Shown here piece by piece: positions 33,580 to 33,944 of a stretch of DNA of 59,306 nt. The stretch comes from Eubacteriales bacterium (lineage in GTDB: Bacteria > Bacillota > Clostridia > Monoglobales > UMGS1388). Position 1 is the stretch's first letter, and each line of letters starts with the position of its first letter. Below the pieces are notes generated by a model. That model had not been told where the DNA came from, did not search any database, and saw only the letters and a program-made list of their open reading frames with translations. The position numbers and the translations under genes were made by a program. Location: assembly GCA_029004515.1 (NCBI GenBank), contig JAQVYH010000002.1, positions 1 through 59,306 of the forward strand, written 5' to 3'.

Positions 33580-33626
33580 TATTAATTAATAGAGGTGTTT
33601 AGAAACTTATGTTTTTAAACACCTTT

Positions 33627-33867
33627 TAGACCGTCGAAAAAGTCGTTCAACCGCAAGCAAAATAGAAAATATTTATATCTTGCTTGTTCTATAAAAAATA
33701 ATATATAATTATAATGGCGTAGGTTTTATCGAAAAACCTACGCCATTGCTTGCTTTCACCCTTCCCGACCTCTACCGTACCCTCGTACGCCGACGATGTC
33801 GGGAATGTCGAATTTAACTTCCTTTTTCGCAGTCTGCCAGCGTGTCTATAGGTTTATCGACACGCTG
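33627..33867 (-). repeat. Family A element, copy 4
   Basis: Near-identical to copies 1 and 3. Flanked by a 36-bp palindrome at 33591-33626 and 33868-33903. Confidence 0.9.
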
Positions 33868-33944
33868 AGAGGTGTTTAAAAACATAAGTTTTTAAACACC
33901 TCTTACTTTATAATACGATATACACATTTTTAACATTCTATACT

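Follow-up and report, generated by a model that had tools for sequence, protein, structure and literature searches.

Whole-hairpin duplications flank family A, a probable IS1182-family MITE of gut and rumen Oscillospiraceae

A 59,306-nt stretch of Eubacteriales DNA (contig JAQVYH010000002.1; here called the window, meaning the whole stretch that was analysed) carries five copies of a sharply bounded ~240-bp element, family A, and raises the question of how a small element comes to stand between two copies of a complete hairpin whose sequence and length change from site to site. Our comparisons indicate that family A is very probably a non-autonomous element (MITE) of the IS1182 family, in the clade of ISBma2, ISCno1 and ISCbo5, moved in trans by a DDE transposase that inserts it at hairpins; the assignment is made because both its termini and the behaviour of its flanks match those of these insertion sequences (ISs). 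The hairpin-length duplication is a real pattern, but a fresh example of behaviour already known for IS1182. Family A is thus a new and widespread MITE from a family in which hairpin-length duplications are already in the literature and their mechanism is poorly characterised; the finding points to no new class of mobile element.

The boundaries of the element follow the pattern 5'-(C/T)AGACCGTCGAAAAAG ... CAGCGTGTC-loop-GACACGCTG-3', in which the start can also be given as (C/T)AGACCG (Table 1). Copies from the window and from a genome scan were 230–310 bp long and held no transposase ORF, and no ORF-bearing version was found among them.

Table 1. Positions in the window of the family A copies, of the target hairpins of copy c4 and of the parts of c4.
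Feature	Position	Strand	Remarks
MITE copy c1	17282..17525	-	29-bp hairpin, identical at 17253-17281 and 17526-17554
MITE copy c2	19854..20091	-	Hairpin with T-run at 19829-19853 only; duplication absent
MITE copy c3	27871..28111	+	23-bp hairpin at 27848-27870 and 28112-28134
MITE copy c4, 241 bp	33627..33867	+	Sharp ends, (C/T)AGACCG...GACACGCTG
Left 36-bp target hairpin of c4, loop TTAT	33591..33626	.	Terminator region between degV and spoVT
Right 36-bp target hairpin of c4, loop ATAA (flipped)	33868..33903	.	Duplicate of the left hairpin
IS1182-type terminal inverted repeat (TAGACCGTCGAAAAAGTCG)	33627..33645	+	Shares 16-19 of 18-19 nt with IRLs of autonomous copies
Internal hairpin P3	33712..33748	+	Covaries fully between subfamilies; T-rich tract after it
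Conserved core (P4/P5 region)	33775..33809	+	The search pattern accounts for part of its invariance (ascertainment)
Subterminal inverted copy of the inverted repeat (CTTTTTCGCAGTCTG)	33822..33836	+	Pairs with the left terminus (helix P1)
Terminal hairpin P6, inverted repeat plus its own inverted copy (CAGCGTGTC...GACACGCTG)	33838..33867	+	Same architecture at one end of many autonomous IS1182 copies
MITE copy c5	42338..42577	+	21-bp palindrome at 42317-42337 and 42578-42598, overlapping the -35 box of the wecB promoter

Two copies of a locus-specific hairpin of 21–36 bp bracketed four of the five elements in the window, and the flank coordinates given for c1, c3, c4 and c5 by the first-pass annotation were all correct on re-checking. 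Flank-match scores of the real window copies were 20–29, against a mean of 6.9 at random window sites; as a chance control, a score of at least 18 was reached at only 2 of 3000 random window sites of the same geometry. Scanning genomes with a conserved 23-mer recovered over 100 loci in gut and rumen MAGs of Oscillospiraceae, Clostridia and Eubacteriales, and together with the window, the Oscillospiraceae and Clostridia MAGs provided a census set of 41 full-length copies with both flanks. The same complete hairpin abutted both ends of the element in 35 of these 41, with a gap of 0–2 nt. Repeat length in the MITE copies ranged from 20 to 42 bp and correlated with hairpin length (r=0.84, mean difference 1.4 nt), so that the length follows the palindrome and not a ruler, as had been proposed from the window alone together with the reading of the flanks as a target-site duplication of an entire palindrome; both proposals hold across the 35 copies. 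Since flank sequences differ at every locus, the flanks do not belong to the element.

The six copies that lacked a matching duplication were c2, which lies 8 nt past the stop codon of ORF 20100-20699, and five in which two unlike hairpins flank the element with their A/T runs facing outward (L077, L053, L087, L016 and L005). These five look like recombinants or MAG mis-assemblies between two insertion sites. Duplication-free copies, namely c2 and some ISs, fit the known outcomes of the IS1182 family, including blunt or deleting insertion of the IS1272 type.

Element orientation relative to the T-run of the terminator was random (8 copies one way, 7 the other, 9 both and 10 neither). The duplicated unit began with A and ended with T in 23 of 28 MITE copies and 43 of 50 autonomous IS copies (~85%; loci L001-L102 and L197-L294), a new regularity in which joints favour an A...T pair near the stem base and which points to a base preference at the joints besides structure. 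Pairing potential often ran 1–5 bp past the repeat in both MITE and IS flanks, so the joints lie at an A.T pair near the foot of the stem, not necessarily at the foot itself. The target of c5 is a weak AT-rich palindrome over the wecB -35 box, not a terminator (window:42270-42660), and the true ECF-S terminator near it lies at 42612-42650. In two species, the element sits in the terminators of orthologous genes (L006:1-200 and L077:440-575), with different hairpin sequences and opposite element orientation, which suggests independent hits on one kind of site.

Whether the flanks are direct or inverted repeats is a test that palindromes weaken; among 35 flank pairs, 20 aligned better as direct repeats, 10 better as inverted repeats and 5 tied. 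Clear loop flips were found at c4, L075 and L039. The flip at c4, on which the annotators had remarked because the two loops are reverse complements, is real (TTAT versus ATAA), but it is not unique, as the 10 of 35 better-inverted pairs show. Such loops are most simply explained by the palindrome having flipped internally at a later time, and a link with the insertion mechanism is also conceivable.

Orthologous sites were compared in relatives at 72–82% identity. Relatives at 72–78% DegV identity lacked the element and had a single terminator hairpin behind degV, and three relatives had a single copy of the wecB promoter segment AAATTGACA-N17-TATATT, at which the window has the palindrome on both sides of c5. 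Likewise, the L065 hairpin was present once in L190, a strain of the L065 species whose flanking gene is 99% identical. These sites agree with a single hairpin having been present before insertion. A search for strain-level empty sites gave none: exact-protein look-ups with DegV, SpoVT, the 160-aa protein, rubrerythrin and ECF-S returned the same sample or nothing, the empty-site patterns predicted for L065 and c4 were absent from JGI metagenomes, the plasmid collection held no IS-free relative of plasmid p3BKT015925, and the NFACT synteny locus L105 was rearranged at the c1–c3 sites and yielded no empty site. L065 also contains a mini-element of ~97 nt (L065:2282-2378) with near-perfect termini CAGACTGTCAAAAAA...TTTTTGAAAGTCTG and a terminator-like hairpin inside; it lies between two unlike terminator hairpins of convergent genes and has no duplication.

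The affiliation of family A was read from its termini, whose inverted repeat can be written as CAGACTGTC(G/A)AAAAAGTC. The left end, CAGACTGTCGAAAAAGTC, was identical to the clade IRL consensus CAGACTGYTGACAAAGTC at 16 of 18 positions, to L225 at 17 of 18 and to L213 at 19 of 19. The right end (reverse complement CAGCGTGTCGATAAACC), which lies inside the terminal hairpin, matched the ISCbo5 IRL CAGGCTGTTGATAAAC at 13 of 16 positions and also matched the IRR type CAGACTGTTGATAAACCC. Compared end by end, the ISCbo5 copy on plasmid p3BKT015925 has inverted repeats CAGGCTGTTGATAAAC (in a terminal hairpin) and CAGATTGTTCAAAAAG, and family A has CAGCGTGTCGATAAAC (also in a terminal hairpin) and CAGACTGTCGAAAAAG, with 13 of 16 positions identical in each pair. 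The left terminus of family A is an inverted repeat of a subterminal segment on the right side, and the right terminus is a hairpin formed by IR-like sequence and its own inverted copy. For ISBma2, the inverted repeat was published as CAGATTGCTGACAAACCC (Song et al., PMC2877748).

The ORF of ISCbo5 encodes an IS1182-family transposase (NF033551, DDE; 472 bits, cutoff 270), and the two flanks of the copy on p3BKT015925 form a direct repeat, 30 bp of a 39-bp hairpin. About 100 autonomous copies, in Bacillota, Desulfobacterota, Gammaproteobacteria, Cloacimonadota, Lentisphaerota and other groups, came from two scans of genomes with this transposase. In 10 of 11 inspected autonomous copies, repeats of 16–46 bp abutted both termini exactly, and nine were perfect palindromes. 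When ends were called by TIR similarity alone, abutting repeats were found in 39 of 60 autonomous copies (38 of the 39 palindromic), and improved end-calling gave 50 autonomous copies with repeats of 16–46 bp. The same pattern was seen in complete genomes.

Neither the window nor ~100 family A loci yielded an IS1182-family transposase (tblastn with the ISCbo5 transposase gave no match in these loci). Multi-copy ORFs in the family A loci were housekeeping genes only, and a search of the loci for inverted TIR pairs gave no match. Half-length HMM matches, considered as candidates for the autonomous partner, proved to be divergent small subfamilies. At L190:1916-2020, 15 nt past a single terminator hairpin, CAGACTGTCAAAAAAGTC opens an element; this sequence equals the MITE terminus over 18 nt, and beyond it the element diverges. 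A possible ATG TTG (ML...) start lies 89 nt in, as in IS1182 transposase genes, and the contig ends there. This truncated element may be the autonomous partner, and it is the sole hint of one; exact scans for its continuation gave zero matches in genome and viral contigs.

These observations can be brought together in a mechanism in which an IS1182-family DDE transposase, supplied in trans, would recognise the inverted-repeat termini of family A and would choose its targets by DNA structure rather than sequence, taking palindromes, for the most part intrinsic terminators, that can form hairpins or cruciforms by extrusion. Strand transfer would link the element's two 3'-OH ends each to a different target strand, close to the 5' feet of the extruded stem-loops and in most cases at an A.T pair, and gap repair would then copy the entire palindrome on both sides, giving a duplication equal to the palindrome (16–46 bp). 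Because the feet adjoin at a four-way junction whatever the stem length, a transpososome of fixed geometry could produce duplications of any length, which would explain their range. We infer the cruciform extrusion, the exact strand-transfer positions and the identity of the host transposase. The best available model is the one that the first-pass annotation had put forward, in which the joints are made in a staggered way at both feet of the extruded hairpin or cruciform and the gaps are then filled in. It is the same as pathway b in Fig. 13 of PMC5678879, a cruciform model in which 5'-feet attack is predicted to double the entire stem-loop (Wan et al. 2017). The annotation's further suggestion, that Cas1-type repeat duplication or structure-specific nicking is a nearer parallel than DDE transposition, is not supported, in that the termini match IS1182 ISs encoding DDE transposases (NF033551) and autonomous members duplicate whole hairpins. 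Nor is its premise sound that IS duplications are always short and fixed, as ISBma2 gives variable 18–26-bp palindromic repeats (PMC2877748). With family A placed as an IS1182-family MITE, the Cas1 analogy is not needed.

Several other explanations bear on the same data. The hairpins might not be target duplications at all, being instead part of the element or artefacts of recombination or assembly between repeats. The five copies with two different hairpins and c2 with one could be read in this way, as could the frequent breaks and mis-joins of MAG assemblies at family A and the many matches at contig ends. Set against this, the flank hairpins are locus-specific and the same within a locus in 35 of 41 copies, they are terminators or promoter palindromes of neighbouring host genes, relatives carry the hairpin once, and the pattern recurs in complete genomes that carry autonomous ISs, all of which make this reading highly improbable. 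Hardly any credence goes to integration by a Cas1/casposase-like or other structure-specific integrase making staggered nicks that span the palindrome. Reviews of CRISPR and casposon integration exist (PMC5137440, PMC4940900). Its geometry is formally similar, as a whole and often palindromic unit is doubled by two staggered transesterifications, but the termini are homologous to those of IS1182 ISs whose sole ORF is a DDE transposase, autonomous ISs without Cas1 show the same duplications, and casposon duplications have a fixed length whereas those found here span 16–46 bp with the palindrome.

An element that acts on single-stranded DNA or RNA hairpins, such as a retroelement akin to group IIC introns or an HUH element of the IS200/IS605 type (PATE) working at the terminator hairpins of a single strand, would account for terminators as favoured targets and for the well-supported multi-helix fold that brings the element ends together, and group IIC introns do target terminator stem-loops. 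The element has no Rfam group II intron or ribozyme match, however, and at 240 bp it is far below group II intron size. Its orientation to the terminator is random (8 versus 7), G.U pairs make up only 9 of 1219 cells, the termini are inverted repeats homologous to those of DDE IS1182 elements, and the duplication stands on both sides, which neither group II introns nor IS200/IS605 elements produce. Family A also departs from the PATE traits of IS200/IS605, which are the lack of IR termini, the lack of a duplication and strand-specific insertion beside a short motif, in having TIRs, long duplications and no orientation bias. A single-strand origin is therefore largely refuted, and we consider it very improbable.

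Transposition by an IS1182-family DDE enzyme, in the form of plain duplex cut-and-paste, does not account for the multi-helix interior of the element. Alignment of 25 diverse family A copies gave conserved ends and nested long-range helices, with compensatory changes in 26 of 49 pairs. Paired cells amounted to 95.6%, where shuffles gave 81.9% and slid registers about 40%, and the covariation score was 0.367 compared with 0.120, a value reached by 0 of 500 shuffles. G.U pairs were nearly absent (9 of 1219 cells) and A.C mismatches were about equally rare; the near-absence of G.U means that no RNA strand is indicated, and suggests that the MITE interior is under a DNA-level or two-strand constraint, not an RNA one. 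Rfam gave no family on the element, either at the gathering threshold or at E<=10, and annotated phage and plasmid collections gave no match to it. Two candidate features were rejected: for a sigma-70 promoter in the element driving RNA to the flanking terminator, a scan found no promoter and the orientation is not constant; a likeness of the core to D5 of group II introns was set aside for its stem of just 5 bp and for want of Rfam support.

Besides being a MITE, the element could be kept by the host as a structured ncRNA or as a terminator/insulator module. The pairing and covariation statistics above would agree with such a role, as would the internal hairpin followed by a T-rich tract and the probable co-transcription of the element where insertion strips the T-run from the gene-proximal hairpin. 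Varying orientation to host genes, the atypical scarcity of G.U with similarly rare A.C and the lack of a matching Rfam family tell against it, and we regard it as unlikely. Alternatively, the IS1182 clade may transpose via folded DNA, as a cruciform or as single-stranded junctions, at donor ends and target alike; this reading is suggested by the covarying fold almost without G.U and by the terminal IR hairpin common to autonomous ISs, and we offer it tentatively, as a possibility that is on balance doubtful. If it were true, the DDE transposase would be junction-specific, and fixed active-site spacing at a four-way junction would explain any duplication length. A folded-DNA or junction mechanism is so far a proposal.

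For the host, the insertions alter gene ends. At c3 and c2 the gene-proximal hairpin is without a T-run after insertion, and as a result transcription from the host gene probably runs on into the element, ending at the distal hairpin copy. Insertion at c5 doubled the -35 box, and the gene-proximal copy keeps the wecB promoter (TTGACA-17 nt-TATATT). The element remodels host genes at their 3' ends and in some cases at their promoters, and it breaks MAG assemblies: at L103:2960-3083 and many scan loci, short-read assemblies break inside the element, and many matches lie <150 nt from contig ends, which makes family A a notable cause of MAG fragmentation in these taxa. The finding accounts for a conspicuous repeat in gut and rumen Oscillospiraceae genomes, and it provides a comparative set of 41 MITE copies and more than 50 autonomous IS copies from many phyla for the under-studied process of structure-selecting DDE transposition with palindrome-long duplications.

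The window holds other features. A second, unrelated repeat family occurs at window:15273-15436 and 51993-52162 (~165-200 nt, 75% identical between copies); each copy is directly downstream of a terminator-like hairpin and contains ACACCTTCGGG, and there was no convincing Rfam match. A THF riboswitch lies at 27595-27700 (-), upstream of a folT-like ECF-S gene, and c3 is just upstream of the promoter region of this gene. The bacterial large SRP RNA is at window 45314-45579 (+). Within the long ORF 5203-7134 (-), a tandem 15-nt repeat of ~7 units (window:5194-5317) probably encodes a repetitive acidic/threonine-rich peptide segment.

Group IIC introns recognise intrinsic-terminator stem-loops by structure, not sequence. 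Their own features, however, are RNA-based retrohoming, use of one strand, insertion downstream of the hairpin without duplication, a size of >600 nt and domains D5/D6, none of which is found in family A. REP/PU-targeting ISs (IS1397, ISKpn1 and IS110/IS1111 members) insert in extragenic palindromes, IS1111 in the QMITE2 REP being one case; these differ in using specific repeated palindrome families, with short or no duplications, and do not duplicate any hairpin whole. CRISPR repeat duplication by Cas1-Cas2 and casposon integration resemble the present case in doubling a whole unit by two staggered strand transfers and gap repair, but belong to another enzyme family, with a length set by a ruler or by a sequence-defined repeat, and IS1182 elements carry no Cas1.

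The closest known systems are ISBma2, ISCno1 and ISCbo5, which share with family A homologous IR termini (CAGRYTGYYGAnAAA), a terminal hairpin at one end, insertion at palindromes that are mostly gene-end terminators, and variable repeats equal to the palindrome. For ISBma2, variable-length repeats of 18–26 bp were described in 2010, and all published examples are perfect palindromes (Song et al., PMC2877748); the insertion sites of ISCbo5 are hairpins (PMC3098183). Family A differs from these ISs in its size of ~240 bp, the lack of an ORF, an extra subterminal IR copy at one end and a conserved multi-helix interior, and in its range, which is that of gut and rumen Oscillospiraceae and other Clostridia MAGs. 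In staphylococci, IS1272 (IS1182 family) targets stem-loops of varied size and sequence and replaces them (PMC5678879), and structure-directed hairpin targeting was independently confirmed for TnSha1 (PMC4923244). Both resemble family A in choosing hairpins by structure, mostly terminators, in either orientation and with a DDE transposase (PMC5678879, PMC4923244). IS1272 deletes or replaces the stem-loop without duplication, by 3'-feet attack or a blunt cut, whereas in family A and the ISBma2 clade the stem-loop is duplicated, which corresponds to pathway b of the same published model (PMC5678879).
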